Virus genome (UHGV): UHGV-0128589
Reading direction: 5' to 3' (one strand)
DNA: 11,077 nt
Origin: a virus
The notes under the pieces: model-generated
Told to the model about the DNA's origin: nothing
Databases searched by the model: none
What the model saw: the letters and a program-made list of their open reading frames with translations, nothing else
In this document: positions 1 to 11,077 of the stretch, piece by piece
Numbering within the stretch: the first letter of the stretch is position 1
Layout of the letters: each line of letters starts with the position of its first letter
Program-made: the position numbers and the translations under genes

Positions 1-20
1 ACAGCAGAAAATTTGCGAGC

Positions 21-239
21 ATGATCGCAATTATTTCACTGCCAGGGATATCAATAGCTTCCAGTAAATCGCTACAGCAGGCAATTGCCAATATAAAAAT
101 CTGGCACAAGGGTGAACAGCGCGCGCCGCATAAGCCATTGTTATTGCTATACGTATTAGCGGGATACCTGAATGGACATCCGCGCCTTTTCGATTATTGT
201 AGTGGAACAGTCTACGAGGATGCAGTTCGAAGTGAGTAA
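21..239 (+). CDS. hypothetical protein, flanking DNA outside the satellite (possibly a gene fragment)
   Basis: 72-codon ORF from the ORF track; no motif I can name; lies left of the att-like repeat at 684-722. Confidence 0.3.
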   Translation: MIAIISLPGISIASSKSLQQAIANIKIWHKGEQRAPHKPLLLLYVLAGYLNGHPRLFDYCSGTVYEDAVRSE

Positions 240-262
240 GTAAAGGTTGCTGGAAACGATCA

Positions 263-481
263 ATGCCGCCATACAATGATTTTTTAGGATCAACAATGAG
301 TAATAAAAACTACGAAAGTCACCGCAAAGCGATTGTTAGTAAAGGTATACCACCCGCTCTATTAAATAGGCTCACCAATTCGGATGTTCAGGTGATCAAT
401 ACCTTCTTAACACGAGTGAGCAAACTGGAACTATCTCAACAAGAGAAAGACTGGATCATAAAAATCATCTCTATGGTTTAG
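263..481 (+). CDS. hypothetical protein, flanking DNA (start uncertain; internal ATG at 296 also possible)
   Basis: 72-codon ORF directly after the previous ORF on the same strand; no recognisable motif; the pair may be fragments of one disrupted gene. Confidence 0.3.
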   Translation: MPPYNDFLGSTMSNKNYESHRKAIVSKGIPPALLNRLTNSDVQVINTFLTRVSKLELSQQEKDWIIKIISMV

Positions 482-683
482 ACAATTTCAGCCTTGTAGC
501 CTTTCAAGGGTTTTGTGTGGGTACAAACATTATCGAATCGGGGTATAGCCGCAGCTGTAGCTGTATCCACATCAGTAAGTTGATGTAGGTTGACTTAGGT
601 TGAGCGAAAAATAGCGAAAAGCCTTGTGTGGCGCGGATTTCAGTCATAAAAAAACGTCCGTTGATGTCTATTGATGTTCCGAT

Positions 684-722
684 GGTGCGAAGGTGCGAAG
701 GTGCGAAGGCCGGACTCAAACC
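684..722. repeat. att-like degenerate copy of the tRNA-Leu 3-prime end (left boundary of the element), preceded by GGTGCGAA x3 tandem repeat
   Basis: ggtgcgaaggccggactcaaacc (700-722) matches tggtgccgaaggccggactcgaacc at 11024-11048 with one indel and one substitution; three tandem GGTGCGAA units at 684-707. Confidence 0.6.
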
Positions 723-772
723 ATCATGTAACACCATAAAATACAAGCAAAAAACATAAACTACACTTTAAA

Positions 773-792
773 GTGCCCCCTTTTGTGCCCCC
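773..792. repeat. GTGCCCCC direct repeat x2, candidate integrase arm-type site at the left end
   Basis: gtgccccc at 773-780 and 785-792; the same TGCCCCC(A) motif recurs beside the int start at 10862-10910. Confidence 0.4.
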
Positions 793-920
793 ACCATTTA
801 TTTGATAATTTTAAGCTCAACTAATTGGTTTATCTCGGAAAAGATAACAAATCCTATCTTCGGTTTGGATCCGTTGCACGGATCCAAATCGGAACAGAAA
901 AAAACTTTTTTTTAGGAAAA

Positions 921-1012
921 CTGTTCACACTGTTCACTAAGCATTTTTGTTTTTAATATTCAGTAAGTTATGCGGTGAATGGTTGGTGAACAGTGAACAC
1001 TTTACTGTTCAC
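921..1012. repeat. iteron cluster of TGTTCAC/GTGAACA octamer-like repeats (P4 ori/crr-type alpha-binding sites)
   Basis: ctgttcac at 921-928, 930-937 and 1005-1012; gtgaacag at 986-993; tgaacac at 994-1000; degenerate ggtgaat at 974-980; both orientations present. Confidence 0.6.
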
Positions 1013-1030
1013 TATTGCCGTTTTGCAGGT

Positions 1031-1055
1031 AAAAAAAGACCGGCGATAGCCGGTC
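1031..1055 (-). terminator. rho-independent terminator downstream of the alpha gene
   Basis: On the minus strand GACCGGC-TATC-GCCGGTC (perfect 7-bp stem) followed by TTTTTTT, 9 nt after the alpha stop codon. Confidence 0.7.
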
Positions 1056-1063
1056 AGGATAGG

Positions 1064-3397
1064 TTATTTCGCTGTGGGGTCATCGCACTTCGGCAGCCAG
1101 TCGGCGTTGCTTTCTTCCCTGAGCGCAAGATTGGTCTGTATGCCCTGATTTTTACGGCGCTTCTCATAACTCAGTCCGTACTCTTTTAGCATCGCTGGCA
1201 GTCCCTTGCCGAACATGGTGAGGCTAAGAGTATTCTTGTAGCCGTGGGCCTCCATGTACGCCAGGTAGGCATGATAGAGGTAAAGTCGCGGCTGACGCGG
1301 AATGATGTTGGCATTGCCAATATACATACCCTCAGGTTCCGGCAGCGCCTCCAGATAGCCACAAAAATCAAATGTCGGGTCGGCGTCGCGCTTGATGCTG
1401 AGCGCCTCGTCGGAATTCTGCTGTGACTGGAGCAGTGTGCGCGCGGTCATCGGGTCGCTGAACTTCTGCATTAGCTGGCGCACAATGACGGCCAGCTCGC
1501 GGGCGATTTTGTTCTTAAGCTGCGGGTCGCGTTCTTCCGGGGCAATCTGCTCCGGGAAATGCAGAATCACCCGGCGACGGGAAACACCGCCGCTGCGGTC
1601 AGTAAAGCGCATCGGGTTATTGTTCACGGCCAGAATCACCGCCGGAATATGGGTGGAGTACGCATCCTTGTATTTCGGGTCTACCGATACCGCATCCCCG
1701 CCGGTGATGGCCTTGAGTCCGGCTCCGTCACCACTCCATTTTTCCTGGTCAGGCAGTCGAATCAGCGAGAAGCCAATCAGTGCGGCACGTTCACGCGGTG
1801 ATTCCAGCGTTTCGATGGTGGCCGACGTGGCGTTATCTTCCCCGGCAAGCATGGTCGCAATTTCGGCCAGAATACTTTTCCCGCTGCCGCCGGGCCCGGT
1901 CACCTCAAGAAAGAGCTGCCAGTCGTAGCGGTTCGCCAGCACCATAAACAGCGCGGCCAGAATCACATCGCGTTTTTCTGGTCTGCCACCGGCAGCACGG
2001 TCGAGCCAGCGCCAGAAATCCGGTGCATGGGTTTCCAGCGTTTCGCCCTCCACCGGCGGGGTAAAATCGACATCACAGAGTGTGCGCAGCCAGTGCGATT
2101 TATCATGCGGGTTGAATGTGCCGGTGGCGGTATCAAGTACGCCGTTGCGAAAGCCAATCAGACGCCGTGCCGGGGCGTCCTGCTGCGGAATAATCAGTTT
2201 CAGGGTCTCCACCACCGAGGCAATTTTTCCCGACGAGAACGGTGCGCGCAGACGCTGGAACAACCCGGCCACGTCGCGGGCAAAGTCCGACGGCGGAATG
2301 ATTTTCCATATCCCGGCCTCATAACGGGACAGGAGCTGGCCGTTCGCGTCCACGGCCAGCGCTTCGCCGTAATGCTCATGCACCCGCATCGCTTTTTCAC
2401 TGGTGCTCATGGCGGTAAATTCCGCCTCGCTCATGGTAGTGAAAGGACTGTCAGCCGGTGGCCGGATGGCCTCATAAATGGCTTTCCGCATCGCCTCCTC
2501 ACCTTTCTGTTCAAATGCGTCATTCCAGTCACCGAACACCGGCGGCAGGGCAACAATACCGTCACAGGCTTCTGCGGCCGCTGCGGCTTTACTCTGGCCG
2601 TCGCCGTTCAGGTCGCGGTCGGCGGCGAGGACAATCTGACAGGCCGGGTATTTCTGACGGGCAAGGCTCGCCAGAGAAAGGAGGTTTGCGGACGACAGTG
2701 CCACCATGACGGTTTCCCCGGTCAGGTGATGTACGGTGAGCGCGGTCGCATAGCCCTCCGCTATCCACAGCCGTTTTCCCGCCTGTTTTTTCCCTTCGAT
2801 GGTGTGGCACGCTCCTTTTACCGCCCCGCCTTTCAGGGTGCGTTTGAGACCCTCAGAATTGATGAGCTGAAGGTTAACCAGTGCATCGGTATTGTCATAC
2901 AGCGGGACAACCACATCACCGGCGCGGAACGTCACGCCGCCGGTTTTATGCACGGCCGTGAGCGTCAGACATTCCAGAGCGGGGAAGCCCTTGCGGGTCA
3001 GGTAGGCGTTGCCGCTGGCCGTGCGGGTTTTCTCCATCAGTCTGACGGCCAGCGTGGCCGCCGCTTTACGGTCTGCTTCGGTTTCAGCCTCTGCGGCCAC
3101 AATCACCTCCGGGGCAACCGGCGACAGGTTACCGGCGACGACATTCACCTTTTGGGCTGCCTCTGACGGATTAACGCCGAACACCTTTTCAACCAGTTTC
3201 AGGCCATCCCCTGCGCCGCACTGGTTACAGAACCACGTCCCGCGACCCTCTTTATCGTCAAACCGGAAACGGTCAGAACCGCCGCACACCGGGCAGGGCT
3301 GATGCCGGTTTTTAATGACCTTCACCCCCAGCGCCGGGAGAATGCGCGGCCAGTGGCCGCACGCCTGTTTTACGGTTTCCGTTACGTTCATTTTCAT
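1064..3397 (-). CDS. alpha: P4-type alpha protein: DNA primase / SF3 replicative helicase
   Basis: 777-aa ORF; N-terminal CxxC...CxxC zinc-binding primase region (CPVCGGSDRF...FCNQCGAG); Walker A P-loop GPGGSGKS in the C-terminal half; RBS GGGAGAA upstream; flanked by iterons, as for P4 alpha. Confidence 0.95.
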   Translation of the reverse strand: MKMNVTETVKQACGHWPRILPALGVKVIKNRHQPCPVCGGSDRFRFDDKEGRGTWFCNQCGAGDGLKLVEKVFGVNPSEAAQKVNVVAGNLSPVAPEVIVAAEAETEADRKAAATLAVRLMEKTRTASGNAYLTRKGFPALECLTLTAVHKTGGVTFRAGDVVVPLYDNTDALVNLQLINSEGLKRTLKGGAVKGACHTIEGKKQAGKRLWIAEGYATALTVHHLTGETVMVALSSANLLSLASLARQKYPACQIVLAADRDLNGDGQSKAAAAAEACDGIVALPPVFGDWNDAFEQKGEEAMRKAIYEAIRPPADSPFTTMSEAEFTAMSTSEKAMRVHEHYGEALAVDANGQLLSRYEAGIWKIIPPSDFARDVAGLFQRLRAPFSSGKIASVVETLKLIIPQQDAPARRLIGFRNGVLDTATGTFNPHDKSHWLRTLCDVDFTPPVEGETLETHAPDFWRWLDRAAGGRPEKRDVILAALFMVLANRYDWQLFLEVTGPGGSGKSILAEIATMLAGEDNATSATIETLESPRERAALIGFSLIRLPDQEKWSGDGAGLKAITGGDAVSVDPKYKDAYSTHIPAVILAVNNNPMRFTDRSGGVSRRRVILHFPEQIAPEERDPQLKNKIARELAVIVRQLMQKFSDPMTARTLLQSQQNSDEALSIKRDADPTFDFCGYLEALPEPEGMYIGNANIIPRQPRLYLYHAYLAYMEAHGYKNTLSLTMFGKGLPAMLKEYGLSYEKRRKNQGIQTNLALREESNADWLPKCDDPTAK

Positions 3398-3411
3398 TGT
3401 TTTTTTCTCCC

Positions 3412-3732
3412 TCAGTGCACAACAGGCGATTGCATGTGACGGGCGCAGAGTTCATCCATCACCGCAAGCCCGAGAAAGGACAGTGACGGCGCGGCTTTCA
3501 GTGGCCCGCCTTCCATTAAATCTTCCAGCAGGGCACAGGCAATCAGGCGGCCTTTTTCCTCGCCGTACTGGCGCAGATAGAAGCCTTCCAGTCCGGCAGC
3601 AATGGCGCTTTCCAGTGCATCAAGGGTGAGATGTGGATAGCGGTGCTGACGTTCGCACAGGGTCAGCCAGGCACAGGCCACGGCGCGACGATACAGCGCA
3701 GCACGCAGAACAGGGGATAATGAATTTTTCAT
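3412..3732 (-). CDS. small protein directly upstream of alpha; position matches P4 cnr (copy-number regulator), identity not established
   Basis: 106-aa ORF; its stop is 14 nt before the alpha start; its start overlaps the stop of the upstream ORF (ATGA), so likely co-transcribed. Confidence 0.65.
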
Positions 3733-3956
3733 ACATTGCCCTCCCCGGTCAGCCAGCGCTGATTGCAGCGTTCGACCACGCCGTCGAGCTGGGCGGTCAT
3801 GAGGTAAATCACGGAGGTAAGCTGTAACTGCTGCGCCGGGTCACGACGAATAGTGGCGCAGTCCTGCACCTGCATCAGTTCGCCGACGAGCTGGCCGACA
3901 TTGCGCATATGCTCCAGGCATTCGAGGTCACGGGCGGTAATGGTGGTGTGTCTCAT
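3729..3956 (-). CDS. hypothetical small protein of the left (replication) operon
   Basis: 75-aa ORF overlapping both neighbours by 4 nt (translational coupling); no recognisable motif. Confidence 0.55.
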
Positions 3957-4147
3957 GCGCGCACCTCCGCAACCGGCAGACGGCCAGCGAACGAGAGGAC
4001 GTAATCACGAACGAGGGAAAGGCGTGCGGCGTGTTCATCACCGGCAACGGTGCGGAGCATACAAATACGGGGTTTACGGTCTGCGCGACGTACAGCGGCA
4101 AACACAAAAACAAACTGCGGGTGTGACGGGGTGAGGGTCGTAGCCAT
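3953..4147 (-). CDS. Icd-like small protein (cell-division-inhibitor / P4 kil-position gene); the longer 183-aa ORF in the track is probably an artefact
   Basis: Internal start [16 protein letters not shown]... at 4147 with SD GGAGGT about 8 nt upstream (alternative ATG at 4171); N-terminus resembles proteins annotated Icd-like in P4-like prophages (from memory, unverified). Confidence 0.55.
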
Positions 4148-4350
4148 AGTGGCAACCTCCAATGTTTGCATGTGACTGCTACCACTGGAAACGCCAATTT
4201 CACTGGTGGTAGCCCAGACGGGGTTGGCGTAACCGGCAACATTGGAAACCGGCGCTTCGTGAGAAGCCCCCGCCTGAGCCACCATTACTCGAAGGATCCA
4301 AAGGTAGATAAATCTCTGGATCAAAAATGGATGCACTGAGGCATAGACAC

Positions 4351-4372
4351 AAAAAAAGACGCAAGGCGCGTC
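4351..4372 (-). terminator. candidate intrinsic terminator/attenuator inside the leader between the AlpA-like gene and the Icd-like gene
   Basis: On the minus strand GACGC-GCCTT-GCGTC (5-bp GC stem) immediately followed by TTTTTTT. Confidence 0.4.
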
Positions 4373-4500
4373 CGGTGTCGCCAATGTTGTAAACGGGACG
4401 CCAATCCCGGCTGCCGATTTTGCGACAGCGGGAAAACTATACCTGGAAACGGCAAACGGAAGCAAGCCAGAAAAAGGGACTTTTTGCTGAGCGGCCATCA

Positions 4501-4767
4501 TCATGCGTCATAACTCCGGTTGCGTTCGGCAATGCGATCCGCCATCCATGCGGTGATTTCAGACTGTGCCCACGCCACGTTTTTTCCGCCGAGGGAGATT
4601 TGTTTCGGGAATGCCTCGCGGCTGATGAGGTCGTAAATGGTCGACCGGGACAGGCCGCATAAATGCATCACTTCGGGCAGACGGATAAAGCGCTCCTGAA
4701 CGACATCAGAGACCGGCATCAGCGGGGCGGCAGGGGCAGAAGACGGGGAAGAAAAAGCGGTGTGCAT
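4501..4767 (-). CDS. AlpA/Vis-family helix-turn-helix regulator / excisionase
   Basis: 88-aa ORF with typical AlpA core [46 protein letters not shown]; SD GAGGT 7 nt upstream of the ATG at 4767; internal start at MPVSD also possible. Confidence 0.85.
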
Positions 4768-5034
4768 CGGGCTACCTCATAAAGTCCATACAGTGCCGGT
4801 CGTGTCCGTCCGGCTTCGGGTAGCTCTCTATTTTGTGAATATTTTTACTCAGGGCAACAAGTCATTTTGTAGTGGCTTACCATACAACAGATTGATTTTT
4901 AAACAATGGCAAACGCTGGCAAACAGATGCAAATCACTGCATTACATTGCAGCAACTTTTATTTCTTTTACTTATATATTTTTCTTTATCAATCGAAAAA
5001 AAGTCTAAGTGATATCGTCAGTGCAAAAAACAGA

Positions 5035-5140
5035 GGGTGAACAGTAGTGAACAGTCAGTGAACAGTTACACCCTCAACTGTTCACCCTTTATCTTACTGT
5101 ATTAATTATCTTTTTCTTTTTAGTGAACAGTAGTGAATAG
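5035..5140. repeat. second iteron cluster of GTGAACAG/CTGTTCACC repeats (P4 ori/crr-type)
   Basis: gtgaacag at 5037-5044, 5047-5054, 5058-5065 and 5123-5130; ctgttcaccc at 5078-5087; gtgaatag at 5133-5140; about 4.1 kb from the cluster at 921-1012. Confidence 0.65.
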
Positions 5141-5215
5141 TTATAAGTAAAAAACAAACAGTGAGTAAGGTTTTCCTGAGACCTTTCTCTGGCCAGCCGG
5201 GTTTTAAGGTCTGTT

Positions 5216-5233
5216 TGTGCCATTTTTGCCACA
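5216..5233 (+). promoter_or_regulatory. TGT-N12-ACA activator site of a P2/P4-type late promoter (Psid-like)
   Basis: tgt-gccatttttgcc-aca with exact 12-nt spacer, centred about 80 bp upstream of the sid start codon. Confidence 0.6.
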
Positions 5234-5305
5234 ACGGCAATGAATCGTGTTGTTGTGTCTGGCGCGGCAGAATCTCTTCAGATTGAAACGAAGAGGAGAC
5301 CCGAC

Positions 5306-6043
5306 ATGACTCAGACCGCTGTTATTCCCGACTATCTTAAACCCGCAATGGAACACCTTGAAACTGCCCGGTCAGCGCATCTTGCCAATGCCAGTCGAAT
5401 GGATGAAACCACGGCTGCCATCAGCCAGGTAAAAGCACAAAAAAATGAACTGGAGCAGGAAAATGGCAATGATTCCGGTGCATGGCGCACCGCCTTTCGT
5501 GCCGGTGGTGCTGTGATTACTGACGAGCTGAAACAACGCCATATAGCGCGTGTAGCACGGCGTGAACTGGTACAGGAATGTGACAGCATGACAGAGGTAT
5601 TGTCTTTTGAGCTGGACAACCTAAAGGGAGCCTGTGACAGCACGGCCAGAGCGTACCGCCAGGCACATCACGGCGTCCTCAGCCAGTATGCAAAGCATGA
5701 GCTCGATGTTGCCCTGCGTGAAACCTGTGGTGCTCTCGTCAGGGCAATGAAACTTAACATACTGGTTCTGAATAACCCTCTTGCCAATACCATCGGCCAT
5801 CAGGGATATACCGAACCGGAAAAGGCTGTGATGCAGCAGGTTAAAGCGTGGCTTGAACAGGCAGTGAAGGGCTGCAACATCCGCCTGACCGATGAGCCGG
5901 TGCTGTTTAAAACAGGACTGTCGGCCTCCACGCTGCCTCATATGGAGTATGACGTTGCGGCCACGCCCGGCCAGCGTCAGGTGTGGTTCGAGAAAATGAA
6001 CAAACGTGAGTCTGACCTTAAGGCCCGGGGGTTACTGTCATGA
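5306..6043 (+). CDS. sid: Sid-like capsid size determination (external scaffold) protein
   Basis: 245-aa product from the internal ATG at 5306 with SD GAGGAG upstream; first gene of a sid-delta-psu arrangement; the ORF-track start at 5240 has no RBS. Confidence 0.8.
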   Translation: MTQTAVIPDYLKPAMEHLETARSAHLANASRMDETTAAISQVKAQKNELEQENGNDSGAWRTAFRAGGAVITDELKQRHIARVARRELVQECDSMTEVLSFELDNLKGACDSTARAYRQAHHGVLSQYAKHELDVALRETCGALVRAMKLNILVLNNPLANTIGHQGYTEPEKAVMQQVKAWLEQAVKGCNIRLTDEPVLFKTGLSASTLPHMEYDVAATPGQRQVWFEKMNKRESDLKARGLLS

Positions 6044-6285
6044 TGCGCTGCCCTTTCTGCCGCACGGCGGCCCATGTGCGCACCAGCCGCTATATGTCTG
6101 ACAGCGTCAAAGAGAGCTACCTGCAGTGCCAGAATGTGCACTGCTCGGCGACGTTCAAAACACATGAGTCGATTTTTGAAGTGATCCGCTCGCCGGGTGT
6201 CGATGAGAAACCCGCGCCGGTGCCGACAGCGTCCGTTGCCATCCGCAAGGTAAAAGGCTGCTACAGCTCACCGTTCCGCCATTAA
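6040..6285 (+). CDS. delta: Ogr/Delta-family zinc-finger late transcriptional activator (single domain)
   Basis: 81-aa ORF with CPFC...(21 residues)...CQNVHC zinc-finger spacing; start overlaps the sid stop (ATGA). Confidence 0.85.
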   Translation: MMRCPFCRTAAHVRTSRYMSDSVKESYLQCQNVHCSATFKTHESIFEVIRSPGVDEKPAPVPTASVAIRKVKGCYSSPFRH

Positions 6286-6301
6286 TCAGGAGAGACAACA
6301 C

Positions 6302-6868
6302 GTGACCACCCTGACATTACAGCAGGCGTTTGAAGCCTGTCAGACGAACAAAACGGCGTGGCTGAATCGTAAAGCCGAACTGGCCTCCGCAGAGCAGGAA
6401 TATCAGGAATTATTACTGGATGACAACGCACCGGGTTCCCGCAGATTACAGATGCTACGTGACCTTATCGACGTAAAAAAATGGGAAGTTAATCAGGCCG
6501 CCGGTCGCTATATCTTCTCGCATGAGGAGGTACAGCGCATCAGCATCCGTAACCGTGTGCATGATTTTATGCAGCAGAACGGCGCAGAACTGGCCGCTGC
6601 ACTGGCCCCTGAGCTGATGGGGATTAAAAACCAGCCCGCGATGATAAAAAACCGTGCGCTTGACCGTTCAGTCACTTACCTGAGAGAAGCTCTTTCCGTC
6701 TGGCTGACCGCAGGAAATGAAATTAATTATTCGGCACAGGATAACGACATTTTAACGGCCATCGGATACAGGCCTGACGCGCCCTCGCGGGATGATTATC
6801 GTGAAAAATTCACCCCTGCACAGAACATGATTTACACCCGTCGACGCGCCGAACTGGCCGCGCAGTAG
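6302..6868 (+). CDS. psu: Psu-like polarity suppression / capsid decoration protein
   Basis: 188-aa ORF with GTG start and SD AGGAG upstream; N-terminus TLTLQQAFEACQTNKTAWLNRKAELASAEQEY resembles P4 Psu as I recall it; third gene after sid and delta. Confidence 0.8.
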   Translation: MTTLTLQQAFEACQTNKTAWLNRKAELASAEQEYQELLLDDNAPGSRRLQMLRDLIDVKKWEVNQAAGRYIFSHEEVQRISIRNRVHDFMQQNGAELAAALAPELMGIKNQPAMIKNRALDRSVTYLREALSVWLTAGNEINYSAQDNDILTAIGYRPDAPSRDDYREKFTPAQNMIYTRRRAELAAQ

Positions 6869-6914
6869 CCCGTCAAAAAATCCTCGTAAATCCCGCTATT
6901 TTTAACCAAATAAG

Positions 6915-6941
6915 CCATGCATCCATAAGGTGCATGGTTTT
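6915..6941 (+). terminator. candidate terminator after psu
   Basis: ccatgca...tgcatgg 7-bp stem followed by tttt, about 45 nt after the psu stop. Confidence 0.35.
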
Positions 6942-7034
6942 GCATGTGTTTTCCCGCCCCTGCACTCCCTGCCAGCGCCAGTCGCGGCGCGACCTGAGAC
7001 CACCTTTGCACCTGCATTAAAAGCGCCCCCTTAA

Positions 7035-7065
7035 GCGGGCAGGCGGGGCGGGGAGAGCATTGCGC
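7035..7065. other. candidate cos / packaging region
   Basis: GC-rich tract gggcaggcggggcggggagagcat loosely resembling the P2/P4 cohesive-end sequence as recalled; located between psu and the accessory genes, where cos lies in a permuted P4 prophage. Not an exact match. Confidence 0.25.
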
Positions 7066-7122
7066 GCAAGATGCCGCGCATTAAAAAGACGTTCTAAAAC
7101 GAAAAAAGCTATAGCGATGAAA

Positions 7123-7143
7123 CATATCTATAAGATAGATATG
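7123..7143. promoter_or_regulatory. perfect 9-bp inverted repeat (candidate operator) upstream of the accessory operon
   Basis: catatctat-aag-atagatatg, about 95 bp upstream of the ATG at 7239. Confidence 0.35.
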
Positions 7144-7238
7144 GCATTACTCCTAAATATGTGTAAAAAATAGTGATACCTATGCAACCCTTTTCTCTGC
7201 TCTTTCAAGGACAAATCTCAGGTTAAGAGAGTCATCAG

Positions 7239-7619
7239 ATGCTAAATCATATTTATGGAATTGTTGGTATAGTTGGCACATTAGTTACGATTGTGACGAG
7301 TTACATCAGAAATCAAGAATTGTCGCAATGGTTCCTTGTATGTTCTGGTTGGCTTACGGCTCTATTGATAGGTTGGTTCACGCATAGAACTATTAAAATT
7401 CTAAGCAAAGATCACAAAGAAACCATCATTAGTAATGATGGTATAAAGCAAACGCTTATAGAGCGGAATGAAACATTAACCACACAACTTACGCATGCAT
7501 TAGAACAGAAAGAAAAAATGGAAGGAATCGCGGCTTATTTAGCAACTCAGAACCCACAAATTAACGCCATGCCTAGAGCCATCGCGCGACAAGAAAATAC
7601 TGAGCTAGGAGGTAATTAA
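7239..7619 (+). CDS. small two-transmembrane-helix protein with C-terminal charged/helical tail; first gene of the accessory operon
   Basis: 126-aa ORF; hydrophobic segments IYGIVGIVGTLVTIVTSYI and WFLVCSGWLTALLIGWF; RBS AAGAGAG 7 nt upstream; AT-rich codon usage unlike the core genes. Confidence 0.7.
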   Translation: MLNHIYGIVGIVGTLVTIVTSYIRNQELSQWFLVCSGWLTALLIGWFTHRTIKILSKDHKETIISNDGIKQTLIERNETLTTQLTHALEQKEKMEGIAAYLATQNPQINAMPRAIARQENTELGGN

Positions 7620-7620
7620 G

Positions 7621-8685
7621 ATGAAAGTAAATTTTGATAGTTATTCATATTATCCTGCATTAAGAACTCGTGCAGCTGAAATACTTGGCTTGAGTAAGCT
7701 TGCTCATGATAAGAAAGAGAAAGTACTTCCACTTATAACCTTAGGGAAATGGCCCCGCTCAGATGAAATTCAAGTTTCTCTTGATAAGAGTCTGGAAGCA
7801 ATGAATAACTTGCCTTTTATTCTGGACGTTACTCAAGAGAACAAGCATCATTGCGCATCAAGCTTTGATCTTCTATCTTCCGAAAATAATTTTTCAAACT
7901 GGATAGCTTTCTGCTCTAAGAATGAGAATATTATCCCCGTAGTTCAAATGCCTGAATCTGCAAGATTAAGGGATATAGTACAGCAAGCAAGAATACTTGA
8001 AGAAAATAAAGGTTCCATTGCATTTCGCATAAAGAACCTTAACACTGATATAAATAAAACAATAGCATCACTTGTGTCTCTCGACTCCCCTGAAAATGCG
8101 GTTATATTCATAGACTTGGGTTACATTCGCGGACATGTCTCAGCAATGACGTCTGCTGCCATAAGTGCAATCAACCAAATAAGGACAGAAATTCCTGAAG
8201 CTATAATTAGTGTACTGTCGACTAGTTTCCCAAGTTCGGTCGCAAACTTTGCAGGAGAAAATGGTCAATCTGGTTATATTGACATTATGGAAAGAGAATT
8301 CCACCAAACTATTGGTGGTCGAGGAGTATCTATATACGGAGATCATAGTTCAATTCACTCTGTTGTATATGATGATGTTGGTGGACGTTATGTCCCAAGA
8401 ATTGACATTGCATTAGATGATGCTTGGTTTTTTGAGAGAAGACCAGGACTTGATAGTAAAGGCTATATAGAAGCAGCAAGAGCGATTCTTAAAAGATACC
8501 CTAATTATCTTGAAGAAGAATCCTGGGGTGCGCTGATGATTAAAAACGCTGCATCAGGCGATATTGCTGGTATGGGGAGTCCCGCTAAATGGATTTCTGT
8601 GCGCGTGAACCTTCATATAACAAAGCAAATTGAGCTATCAGAAGCACTTAAAACAGATTACGATCCTGAAGAGGATTTCTTCTAA
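7621..8685 (+). CDS. uncharacterised 354-aa protein, second gene of the accessory operon; function unknown
   Basis: Long ORF starting 1 nt after the upstream stop; strong SD AGGAGGT 9 nt upstream, embedded in the last codons of the upstream gene; no Walker or other catalytic motif recognisable by eye. Confidence 0.8.
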   Translation: MKVNFDSYSYYPALRTRAAEILGLSKLAHDKKEKVLPLITLGKWPRSDEIQVSLDKSLEAMNNLPFILDVTQENKHHCASSFDLLSSENNFSNWIAFCSKNENIIPVVQMPESARLRDIVQQARILEENKGSIAFRIKNLNTDINKTIASLVSLDSPENAVIFIDLGYIRGHVSAMTSAAISAINQIRTEIPEAIISVLSTSFPSSVANFAGENGQSGYIDIMEREFHQTIGGRGVSIYGDHSSIHSVVYDDVGGRYVPRIDIALDDAWFFERRPGLDSKGYIEAARAILKRYPNYLEEESWGALMIKNAASGDIAGMGSPAKWISVRVNLHITKQIELSEALKTDYDPEEDFF

Positions 8686-8710
8686 AAAATAAGGGAGGGC
8701 AGCCTCCCTT
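8683..8710 (-). terminator. terminator hairpin between the convergent accessory genes (strongest for the minus-strand gene)
   Basis: aagggagg-gcag-cctccctt perfect 8-bp stem; on the minus strand it is followed by ATTTTTT. Confidence 0.55.
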
Positions 8711-9503
8711 ATCGCACGACCCTTTTCAAAACTTTGATGGGAGTGATACTCCCAACCTCTCCGTGCTTTCTCATAAACCCCTCAATATCAACTGTATAAA
8801 AATCATCTAATTTTTCATCAGTATTATCTTCGAAATCTTTAAAGTGATTATGTTCCCGTCTCTTTTTTGATTTACTTAACAAAGTCAAATCGTTAGCATT
8901 CGATAATTCGCTACCTGCTAATTTCTTCAAGTAATCATCAGAAGTTTCTTTATAGCGTTGCTTAATTGCTTTAAGCGCAAAGTCTCTAATTCTAGATAGG
9001 GGAATTTGTTCAGCTATACGCTCTAAAGCCTCACGACCAGACTCGAGTAAAAACTTTTTCCCATTTTCAACAAGAAGTAATTGCAACTCTTTTTTCAGTA
9101 AGAAATTAATATAAACCTTCTTATTACCGAGTACTGCCGTACGCCCACGCTGAACTATTTTAAAACGAATGCCTTTACTAGTATTTATGTATTCAATAAC
9201 ACCAACATCTGATGTTACTTTCTTCGCAATTTCATAAGTAAATTTTGGGGCACAAACAACAGTTACCTTTTCAAAACGAGATGTAAAGGTTTCTAACTGA
9301 CCATCTAATCTTTTAAGAGAGTCAAAATCACTTTTTATTTCAAAAGCTTGCAAGTGTCCATTCGCAACGGCCAGATCAGCGCGGCGACTCCAATTCGCTA
9401 CAACCATTTCATTAATAATGGTTGCGTTCTCTAACAAGCCTTTTTTAAAAAGCCAGTCAATAAATGCGACTTTTACATCTTGCTCTCTTAATAAAAATGA
9501 CAT
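8709..9503 (-). CDS. stand-alone protein with N-terminal PD-(D/E)xK nuclease-like domain and charged helical C-terminal region
   Basis: 264-aa ORF; motif order E7 ... RADLAV (D42) ... AFEIKSD (E54-x-K56) fits the PD-(D/E)xK core; own extended -10 promoter and own terminator; very AT-rich. Confidence 0.8.
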   Translation of the reverse strand: MSFLLREQDVKVAFIDWLFKKGLLENATIINEMVVANWSRRADLAVANGHLQAFEIKSDFDSLKRLDGQLETFTSRFEKVTVVCAPKFTYEIAKKVTSDVGVIEYINTSKGIRFKIVQRGRTAVLGNKKVYINFLLKKELQLLLVENGKKFLLESGREALERIAEQIPLSRIRDFALKAIKQRYKETSDDYLKKLAGSELSNANDLTLLSKSKKRREHNHFKDFEDNTDEKLDDFYTVDIEGFMRKHGEVGSITPIKVLKRVVR

Positions 9504-9529
9504 AATCTCGTCACACCCTTAAAAATTGT

Positions 9530-9545
9530 TAAAAATTATAGCAAA
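9530..9545 (-). promoter_or_regulatory. candidate extended -10 promoter (TGcTATAAT) for the 8709..9503 gene
   Basis: Minus strand reads ttgcTATAATtttt in the 91-bp gap between the int stop and the downstream gene start. Confidence 0.4.
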
Positions 9546-9594
9546 AAAAACAAACTCCATCCATTATTCCTCTTGAGTTTTTTTTGATAAAGAG

Positions 9595-10872
9595 CTAGAT
9601 GTCATTTATTTTACTCCCACAGTCATACGGTGATATATACTCCTTATTATTTAGATCTAAATAATCAGCCCACCACTGAACCATTTTGCGCCTTTCATCT
9701 AAATGTTCTGATGTATGAATATAAGCAGCCCTAACGCCATTACGTTCTGTGTGACTCAACTGACGTTCTATAGCGTCATCGCTCCATAATCCTGACTCAC
9801 CCAGCGCACCACGGGCCATCGTTCTAAATCCATGCCCGCAAACTTCAGTTTTCGTGTCATAGCCCATCGCACGCAATGCGCTGTTTACCGTGTTTTCACT
9901 CATAACCTTAGTTGCGTCATGATCCCCCGGGAACAGCAGCTCTTTATCACCACTAATTTGCTTGAGCTGCTCTAATAAAACCATCGCCTGCCGACTGAGA
10001 GGAACAATATGCTCCTCTTTCATTTTCATGCCACGATACGAGTAACGCACGCCCTTAATTTCTTCTCGCTTTGCAGGTATACGCCAAAGAGATTTATCGA
10101 AGTCGAACTCATCCCAACGCGCGAAACGCAACTCACTGGAACGCACAAAAGTTAGTAAGGAAAGCTCAACCGCGATCCGTGTCATTACACGGCCACGATA
10201 TGCAGCAAGACGTGCAAGAAACTCAGGGAACCGGCTAGAGGGTAAAGCGGGGTAATGTCGCGCTTTGGTTGTCGATAGCGCACCGGCCATATCACTGGCT
10301 GGATTTGAGTCGATGTAATCGTTCTGTACTGCATAACGCATGATAGCCGTGACACGCTGCTGAAGACGCTGTGCGACGTCATGCTTACCACTTGCATCAA
10401 CTTTTTTAATCGGGGCTAACAGGTGGCTAGTCTTGAGCTGGCGAATGTCGGACGAACCAATATGAGGGAAGATATAAAGCTCAAGATAGCGAAGAACGCG
10501 CGATCGATGGTCTTCACTCCAGCGCTTGTTACTGGCGTGCCATTCACGAGCAATGGTTTCGAAAGTATATGCCCCCGAATTCTCGGCCTGAGCTTCTTTC
10601 TGTTCGGCTTTTGGGTCAATGCCCTGCACTAGCAGCTTTTTAGCTTCATCGCGCTTTGCTCTTGCCTGAGCAAGCGTCACAGTAGGCCAAACACCAAAAG
10701 CGAGGCGATCCTCTTTTTTGTCTGAGGGGCGTCTGTATTTCATGCGCCAGTATTTAGAACCCTTAGCCGAAATCTCGAGATACAAACCGCCGCCATCGGC
10801 CATTTTGTAGGTTTTTTCTTTTGGCTTTGCGGTCTCGACCTGTCTGGCGTTGAGCTTCATTTGGGGGCACAT
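9595..10872 (-). CDS. int: P4-type tyrosine integrase / site-specific recombinase
   Basis: 425-aa ORF; N-terminus with the ...KTYKMADGGGLYLEI... motif typical of P4-family integrases; C-terminal HGFRTMARG and downstream tyrosine (VRAAYIH); about 150 bp from the tRNA 3-prime end. Start may be the ATG at 10860 (MKLNARQ). Confidence 0.95.
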   Translation of the reverse strand: MCPQMKLNARQVETAKPKEKTYKMADGGGLYLEISAKGSKYWRMKYRRPSDKKEDRLAFGVWPTVTLAQARAKRDEAKKLLVQGIDPKAEQKEAQAENSGAYTFETIAREWHASNKRWSEDHRSRVLRYLELYIFPHIGSSDIRQLKTSHLLAPIKKVDASGKHDVAQRLQQRVTAIMRYAVQNDYIDSNPASDMAGALSTTKARHYPALPSSRFPEFLARLAAYRGRVMTRIAVELSLLTFVRSSELRFARWDEFDFDKSLWRIPAKREEIKGVRYSYRGMKMKEEHIVPLSRQAMVLLEQLKQISGDKELLFPGDHDATKVMSENTVNSALRAMGYDTKTEVCGHGFRTMARGALGESGLWSDDAIERQLSHTERNGVRAAYIHTSEHLDERRKMVQWWADYLDLNNKEYISPYDCGSKINDI

Positions 10873-10910
10873 TTCTAATCGAAGTTAAGATGCCCCCAAT
10901 TATGCCCCCA
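10862..10910. repeat. TGCCCCCA repeats (two direct, one inverted) at the int start, candidate integrase-binding or autoregulatory sites
   Basis: tgggggca at 10862-10869 (inverted, overlapping the first int codons); tgccccca at 10891-10898 and 10903-10910. Confidence 0.4.
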
Positions 10911-11023
10911 ATGACATCAGGATTTCAACGGACAACCTCGGACGACTCAGGACGTAAAAATCGCTGCAAGCATTGATTTTTAAGGGATAATTGGACTTTC
11001 TCGGATGGTCTTGGAAGTACTTA

Positions 11024-11077
11024 TGGTGCCGAAGGCCGGACTCGAACCGGCACGTATTTCTACGGTTGATTTTGAAT
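11024..11077 (-). tRNA. leuX: tRNA-Leu(CAA), leuX-type, 3-prime portion only (truncated by the window edge)
   Basis: Reverse complement reads ATTCAAAATCAACCGTAGAAATACGTGCCGGTTCGAGTCCGGCCTTCGGCACCA: anticodon loop with CAA, variable arm, T-arm GGTTCGAGTCC and acceptor end with CCA; matches E. coli leuX as I recall it. Confidence 0.85.

Follow-up and report, generated by a model that had tools for sequence, protein, structure and literature searches.

The 11,077-nucleotide stretch of the virus genome UHGV-0128589 analysed here (the window, in what follows) raises the question of whether it holds a complete phage satellite that can still be mobilised and, if so, where this satellite ends and which of the known satellites it resembles. 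Positions 705-11043 very probably correspond to a P4-like phage satellite inserted at the 3' end of the leuX gene of Escherichia coli, which would excise as a circle of 10,326 bp. The element is a typical member of the P4-like family and, judging from its sequence, probably an active one. It belongs to a kind already described and very common, and what is new here is one further member. Its size of 10.3 kb is close to the family median of 10 kb (PMC8628076) and was counted in favour of an intact satellite. The listing of open reading frames (ORFs), the base composition and the repeats divided the window into a GC-rich part (~1000-7000) and an AT-rich part (7000-9500), with an integrase gene adjoining a truncated tRNA at the right edge.

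Comparison by tblastn with the proteins of the P4 reference (NC_001609, X51522) showed that, out of 13 named P4 genes, 11 have a full-length homologue in the window, and that these stand in the P4 order with neither frameshifts nor truncations. Frameshifted core genes had been named beforehand as a refuting observation, and the alignment with P4 shows none. The alpha primase-helicase (1064-3397, minus strand, 777 aa) is 83% identical to P4 alpha over 775 aa and has the Pfam domains Zn_Ribbon_Prim, Toprim_3, D5_N, DUF5906 and Pox_D5 (PF03288, E=8e-19); its rho-independent terminator t-alpha (1031-1055, minus strand) is kept with respect to the annotated P4 terminator at 4604-4628. It is accompanied by a cnr/orf106 homologue (DUF5375; 3412-3732, minus strand, 106 aa, 85% identity to P4 orf106, PF17345 E=5e-60) and by an AlpA/Vis excisionase-regulator (4501-4767, minus strand, 88 aa, 70% identity to P4 orf88, PF05930 E=3e-20). 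On the plus strand, sid, delta and psu are contiguous at 5306-6868. The capsid size determination protein Sid (5306-6043) is 66% identical to its P4 counterpart over 239 aa (phrog_6165, E=2e-111); it probably starts at 5306, giving 245 aa instead of the 267-aa ORF, and is annotated with 245 aa in six assemblies. Delta (6040-6285, 81 aa) has a single Ogr/Delta zinc-finger domain (PF04606, E=5e-21) with 40% identity to P4 delta over one domain, and retains the four zinc-binding cysteines (4, 7, 30 and 35). The polarity suppression and capsid decoration protein Psu (6302-6868, 188 aa) is 61% identical to P4 Psu (PF07455, E=3e-89). Finally, a tyrosine integrase of 425 aa (9595-10872, minus strand) is 96% identical to P4 Int over aa 1-414; it has three Pfam domains, namely PF00589 (E=5e-17), an arm-binding and a central one, and keeps the R...HxxR...H...Y catalytic motifs, with the last ~11 residues (after ~414) unlike P4.

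The initial annotation had spoken of a complete P4-like core. This stands by the seven-marker definition of P4-like satellites (int, psu, delta, sid, alpA, PF10554 and alpha; PMC8628076, SatelliteFinder), all seven components being found in the element by Pfam, tblastn and phrog matches, but not in the sense of a full P4 gene set. P4 epsilon and orf151 have no homologue in the window by tblastn (best epsilon match E=0.75), and the Pfam family of true epsilon, PF25738, matches no window ORF. The marker scored as 'epsilon' in PMC8628076 is PF10554 (Phage_ASH), which in the window matches an ORF of 183 aa (E=1.5e-30). In NC_001609 itself, the annotated epsilon (7888-8175) matches only PF25738 'Derepression', and PF10554 matches the neighbouring 'cI ORF' (region 7888-8584). 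As PF10554 marks the 'cI ORF' and not epsilon, elements scored as epsilon-positive in that census, including this one, can lack the true helper derepressor. The remaining parts listed in the initial annotation (int, AlpA/Vis, alpha, sid/delta/psu, two iteron clusters, a late promoter and cos) are present at the positions it gave or close to them, and none of these matches is due to chance.

The window closes with 54 nt (11024-11077, minus strand) of the 3' portion of a tRNA-Leu gene, leuX tRNA-Leu(CAA), which is cut by the window end and holds the proximal attachment (att) core at 11031-11043. Six assemblies encoding the same cII protein as the window were used as carrier loci (L002-L007). In one of them, L005, whose element is 99.98% identical, the full tRNA-Leu(CAA) is called by ARAGORN downstream of valS-holC-pepA-lptFG-yjgR-ahr, with a flank 100% identical to E. 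coli chromosomes. Because this tRNA-Leu(CAA) adjoins ahr, the insertion site is leuX, the attachment site of P4 itself, and the flanks identify E. coli as the host. A different host had been suspected from best complete-genome matches of ~89%, and was excluded by the same flanks. None of the complete RefSeq genomes of E. coli has the element at a coverage of at least 80%.

Both boundaries lie inside the window, as the initial annotation had claimed. A 13-bp exact direct repeat, GAAGGCCGGACTC, was found at 705-717 and 11031-11043, and the interval 723-11023 noted previously is the interior between these two cores. At the right junction the int arm and TGGTGCC are followed by the core and then by GAACCGG of the tRNA. 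The distal junction (684-722) consists of three copies of GGTGCGAA, the core and the phage-type AAACC, so that host DNA and GGTGC stand before the core and AAACC after it, followed by sequence homologous to the crr-side attP arm of P4. This arm (723-920, aligned with P4 4071-4640) contains two integrase arm-type repeats (GTGCCCCC TTTT GTGCCCCCAC, 773-794) and a GGATCC palindrome (an inverted repeat, 861-891), both kept in P4. The int-side arm-type repeats (10861-10911; TTGGGGGCACAT, AGATGCCCCCAA and TTATGCCCCCAA) are identical to the annotated arm repeats of P4. The predicted attP circle would join the 10872 side to the 723 side through ...TTATGGTGCCGAAGGCCGGACTCAAACCATCATG...

A larger or composite element, whose real left end would lie to the left of position 1, would find some echo in the segment 496-703, which resembles an integrase-proximal att arm, and in the tandem islands present at leuX in other strains. 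However, the att core at 705 is followed by a P4-type crr-side arm at 723, and no integrase is found to the left of 705 within the window. Furthermore, the similarity of the window to the other carriers stops at position 700 in four of the six loci, the left neighbour among the carriers being hsdR, AbiJ, HNH or a second integrase island (four different contexts), and window positions 1-720 are found unchanged (100%) in hundreds of complete E. coli genomes without the element, where they adjoin HNH, nanM and fimB. The comparison of the carriers and these element-free genomes place the left end at ~705, well inside the window, and a larger element is extremely improbable.

The element is 99.98-100% identical among five carrier loci, beside an ahr region with 95.2-99.1% identity and a valS-lptG region with 98.7-99.2%. 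A near-identical element next to diverged chromosomal DNA argues for recent horizontal spread. The claim that the element might still be mobilised by a P2-like helper is plausible from the intact ORFs and from these near-identical copies in diverged E. coli backgrounds, in which the flanking ahr is 1-5% different. A copy in the draft E. coli assembly GCA_012171795.1 (contig AARVFU010000026.1) is also at leuX and differs at 2 positions within window 700-11077 (99.98% identity), but has another neighbouring island to the left of the distal att. Two variants can be distinguished, the one shared by the window and L005 (2 differences between them) and that of the other carriers (L002, L003, L004, L006 and L007), from which the former differs at ~85 sites. 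These differences are clustered in the two genes of capsid hijacking, sid and psu (5476-5800 and 6346-6640), with alpha, int and the cargo nearly identical, which suggests that the module of helper exploitation was either swapped by recombination or placed under diversifying selection.

The immunity region is made of RNA genes. On the minus strand, a CI immunity RNA of the Rfam C4 family is found at 4202-4289 (RF01695, 78.5 bits versus a gathering threshold of 45, E=2e-14) and the leader of the early (PLE) transcript at 4352-4442, with an isrK-type RNA and terminator at 4352-4429 and a1/b1-type target hairpins at 4390-4442 (RF01394, 75 bits; RF03163, 48.5 bits). The C4, isrK and a1/b1 matches are all above the Rfam gathering thresholds. 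The CI loop CCAAUGUU (also written CCAATGTT) has exact nine-nt complements in an upstream seqA-like target (4381-4389, minus strand) and in a downstream seqC-like target (4156-4166, minus strand), both detected by a complementarity search. In P4, the positions aligned with these hold a pair that has co-varied, CCUGUGAA/UUCACAGG (also written CCTGTGAA/TTCACAGG). This co-variation of loop and targets with respect to P4 indicates what would be a working RNA immunity with a specificity unlike that of P4, and the element is presumably heteroimmune to it. In P4, the CI RNA acts mainly through transcription termination.

The 183-aa ORF matched by PF10554 (3953-4504, minus strand) covers much of this region and has 68.5% identity to the P4 'cI ORF' (window 3962-4285). 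Its putative true product is the C-terminal part, an Icd-like ORF of 64 aa with an ATG at 4147 (3953-4147, minus strand); the NCBIfam family phage_ICD_like matches residues 131-178 of the long frame, and the Shine-Dalgarno sequence GGAGG of the Icd-like ORF overlaps the seqC target. The PF10554 match itself spans codons 22-131 (~nt 4112-4441), nearly the same as the interval occupied by the CI/C4 RNA, isrK and a1/b1 (4202-4442). The conservation behind the PF10554 'protein family' may for the most part be that of RNA genes, and the real product is likely the 64-aa Icd-like protein. Like the immI region of P1 and P7 (c4 RNA, icd, ant), the element has an antisense RNA of the C4 family that is flanked upstream and downstream by complementary targets, and after it an Icd-like ORF with a target overlapping its ribosome binding site, but the next gene is a conserved ORF of 75 aa instead of the Ant antirepressor.

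This 75-aa ORF (orf75; 3729-3956, minus strand; phrog_10110, E=2e-46) occupies the position that epsilon and orf151 have in P4. It matched no Pfam, NCBIfam or PADLOC family and showed no BLASTP similarity to P4 epsilon. We found 339 homologues in Enterobacterales, the best 120 of which have 80-96% identity and are all annotated as hypothetical. A protein of 75 aa absent from P4 occurs in 61% of P4-like elements (PMC8628076), and the ORF of the window matches it. Its AlphaFold2 (AF2) model is a helical hairpin with a predicted local distance difference test (pLDDT) score of 74.6, for which Foldseek found no match below E=1 in BFVD. From its location, that of epsilon in P4 and of the antirepressor in P1, after the CI RNA and the Icd-like ORF, one could speculate that this protein is the helper-manipulating factor, an anti-repressor or equivalent, of most P4-like satellites, although we consider this unlikely. 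If it were true, P4 epsilon would be the exception and the helper range of the family would be set by a so far uncharacterised protein.

The cis-acting sites of replication, late transcription and packaging were also located. Like P4, the element has an ori (5037-5140) with six type I iterons, at 5037, 5047 and 5058 (minus), 5078 (plus), and 5123 and 5133 (minus), all GTGAACAG or its complement and in the same order and spacing as in P4 ori. An Rfam let-7 match at 5021-5102 (minus strand; 33.8 bits, below the gathering threshold of 53.5) was rejected as the palindrome formed by these iterons and not an RNA gene. The cis replication region crr (921-1012) holds its 5-6 type I iterons (TGTTCAC) in a single unit of ~100 bp. 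The activator site of the late promoter Psid (5216-5233, plus strand), TGTGCCATTTTTGCCACA, is a canonical TGT-N12-ACA dyad aligned with P4 9493-9510. Where P4 has its PLL activator site, the element has a dyad (4868-4886) of the form TGT-N13-ACA, not N12. Another E. coli P4-like element (L014) also has N13 at the PLL position, and a further one (L013) has TAT instead of TGT. In this lineage, late expression of the left operon may be activated in another way.

The cos site (7007-7070) has a predicted 19-nt cohesive end, GGCGGGGCGGGGAGAGCAT, at 7042-7060. It is identical to that of P4 at 16 of 19 positions, and its flanks, CTGCATTAAAA.CGCCCC...AAGCGGGC and TGCGCGC, are kept in P4, P2, a 186-type Eganvirus and others. 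The same 19-mer was found in 20 diverse P4-like contigs of IMG/VR, all encoding Psu and having among them several different integrases and Sid types, indicating that this is a common satellite cos allele. All 20 exact matches are satellites, and no helper phage with the identical 19-mer was found in IMG/VR.

With these parts the life cycle would run as follows. In the lysogenic state the CI RNA would pair with seqA and seqC in the early transcript, keeping the left operon (Icd-like ORF, orf75, cnr and alpha) off. When a phage of the P2 family infects or is induced, the helper Ogr and the one-domain Delta would switch on Psid (sid-delta-psu) and the leftward late promoter. Alpha would act from ori and crr to replicate the element, and Int together with Vis would recombine the two att junctions to excise it. 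The helper terminase would then cut cos, Sid would divert the helper capsid protein to small capsids and Psu would stabilise them. In the prophage state, expression of gop-beta-cII from the hotspot between cos and int would protect the host from other phages. The sequences themselves show the genes and their integrity, the cis sites, the boundaries and the recent spread between strains. This life cycle is inferred by homology with P4, and all activities, the helper's identity and the way in which its prophage would be derepressed without epsilon are likewise only inferred.

Several observations weigh against an active satellite. The absence of epsilon removes the P4 route for derepressing a resident P2 prophage, crr is a single repeat unit versus two units of 120 bp in P4, and the spacing of the dyad at the PLL position is N13. 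The host-side half of the distal att, TGGTGC-GAAGG, has one C less than the 3' end of the tRNA, TGGTGCCGAAGG, a difference present in all six related loci despite their differing left flanks, and the 8-mer GGTGCGAA is in triplicate both in the window and in the hundreds of E. coli genomes with its flank. Such a short half bearing a triplication could lower the efficiency of excision or leave leuX damaged after it. Actually, a crossover inside the 13-bp identity would leave the leuX acceptor strand 1 nt short, so the satellite may be what supplies the functional 3' end of leuX. In addition, no helper prophage is visible within the 11-kb window, and the leuX region could also have been transferred by general recombination or by transduction, making the copies near-identical without satellite mobilisation, which is less likely given the divergent flanks.

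The missing epsilon, the single crr unit, the non-canonical PLL dyad spacing and the degenerate distal att half-site would fit a domesticated P4-like remnant, no longer mobilisable and kept for gop-beta-cII and for the completion of the leuX 3' end; P4-like elements are indeed often regarded as cryptic prophages. However, all the ORFs are intact, the regulatory RNAs co-vary with their targets, cos and the iterons are conserved, and identical copies are present in divergent strains beside four different neighbouring islands. Furthermore, the layout without epsilon and with orf75 is that of the majority of the family (61%, PMC8628076) and thus unlikely to be a defect. Taken together, domestication seems to us a rather doubtful explanation, and an intact satellite that could still be mobilised is the reading that we prefer.

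Among the known satellites, P4 shares with the element the order att-crr-alpha-cnr-...-CI RNA-vis-ori-sid-delta-psu-cos-gop-beta-cII-int-att, the integration at leuX, the arm-type repeats, the layout of the ori iterons and the three-gene cargo, with aa identities of 96% for Int and 83% for alpha. The differences are the 75-aa ORF instead of epsilon and orf151, a delta with one domain (81 aa) versus two in P4 (166 aa and two PF04606 stretches), one crr unit versus two, the cohesive end (16/19), the CI loop and its targets, the C-terminal tail of Int, cargo proteins only 59% (Gop), 74% (Beta) and 55% (cII) identical, and a size of 10.3 kb versus 11.6 kb. Many uncharacterised E. coli P4-like prophages, such as those of MS15047 (NZ_CP082100) and F95 (NZ_OY754453), have ~90% nucleotide identity to the element from crr to cos (window 895-7070) and the same layout of alpha (777 aa), DUF5375 (106 aa), 75-aa ORF, Icd-like ORF (183 aa), AlpA (88 aa), Sid (245 aa), delta (81 aa) and Psu (188 aa). 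They differ in the cargo of the hotspot, e.g. a toxin of the Doc type or, elsewhere, a large hypothetical protein, and some have other integrases and insertion sites.

The initial annotation had placed the element closer to phiR73 than to P4, on account of the single-domain delta and the divergent cos. The satellite phiR73 is P4-like; its delta has a single domain, and its immunity relies on RNA but is of non-P4 specificity. It integrates at selC and carries the retron Ec73 in the hotspot (Inouye et al. 1991, as cited in PMC8628076). In the phage collection searched, from which phiR73 is absent, megablast and tblastn with delta matched only P4 and Ogr proteins of P2-like phages. Compared with the above description of phiR73, the element agrees in the single-domain 81-aa delta and in a CI loop specificity unlike that of P4, to which the three cohesive-end positions of 19 that differ from P4 might be added. 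However, all the related P4-like prophages of E. coli that were examined have the 81-aa single-domain delta, so this trait is not diagnostic of a phiR73 lineage and it is the two-domain delta of P4 that appears as the outlier. Neither does the cohesive end point to phiR73, as its three changes are only at positions that are also variable among functional P2-family phages. Moreover, Int is 96% identical to that of P4 and the att site is leuX, not the selC of phiR73, and the cargo is gop-beta-cII as in P4 and not a retron, with no reverse transcriptase or msr match in the window by Rfam and PADLOC and nothing but gop-beta-cII in the hotspot. On the features compared, Int, att and cargo are all of the P4 type, and membership of the phiR73-type lineage is very unlikely.

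The AT-rich block between cos and int corresponds to the known defence hotspot of P4-like satellites (psu-int; PMC8628076, PMC9122126). It contains gop (7239-7619, plus strand, 126 aa, 59% aa identity to P4, PADLOC E=6e-73), beta (7621-8685, plus strand, 354 aa, 74%, PADLOC E=3e-188) and cII (8709-9503, minus strand, 264 aa, 55%, PADLOC 'cll' E=1.5e-116). The cassette (7239-9503) thus gives three full-length PADLOC matches in P4 order and orientation, with PF14350 and NF033832 also found. What the initial annotation had called cargo is not foreign, since P4 itself carries gop-beta-cII and the element has a diverged allele of it, with ~30% divergence at the DNA level. In P4 these genes protect against lambda and P1 (PMC9122126), and the spectrum of phages targeted by the diverged allele could possibly be different. 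We found gop-beta-cII in 39 of 5,426 complete E. coli genomes, all with only ~71% nucleotide identity to the window cassette, indicating that none of them holds its allele. In the index of public assemblies, exactly this cII protein is found in 141 blocks, and the allele is known only from draft assemblies of E. coli. Among 185,579 species-representative genomes there was no close relative of cII in Enterobacterales, with only homologues of 24-45% identity in Betaproteobacteria and other groups. Homologues of cII (sce7726 family) with 38-45% identity are present in the Betaproteobacteria Massilia, Silvimonas and Methylotenera (L015-L020), far from any P4-like context, indicating that parts of gop-beta-cII exist outside satellites.

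P4-like satellites have been detected in 26% of the E. coli genomes screened, and in 44% of isolates as cited in the same work (PMC9122126). The psu-int defence hotspot being already described, the significance of this locus beyond correct annotation is small. It provides a clean example of an intact, precisely bounded and recently spread element, and illustrates that the reference P4 is atypical of the family in its two-domain delta, its epsilon and orf151 and its double crr. It also offers a second allele of gop-beta-cII, ~30% diverged, for comparing target specificity with that of P4, and a reasonable natural substrate for the question of how satellites without epsilon engage their helpers.

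The DNA to the left of the distal att (1-703) does not belong to the element and is a remnant of an older leuX-associated island. It includes a truncated fragment of a phosphorothioate-DNA restriction endonuclease (21-239, a partial match to NCBIfam PT-DNA_restrict) and a small ORF matching phrog_25874 (263-481), both (21-481) left over from a further defence island next to the satellite. The orphan integrase-proximal arm that follows (496-703) is homologous to the DNA directly upstream of a second integrase, of 419 aa, in L003, and is also found in L006. It has repeated GTTGA(T/C) motifs and looks like an att arm left behind by a deleted tandem leuX island.

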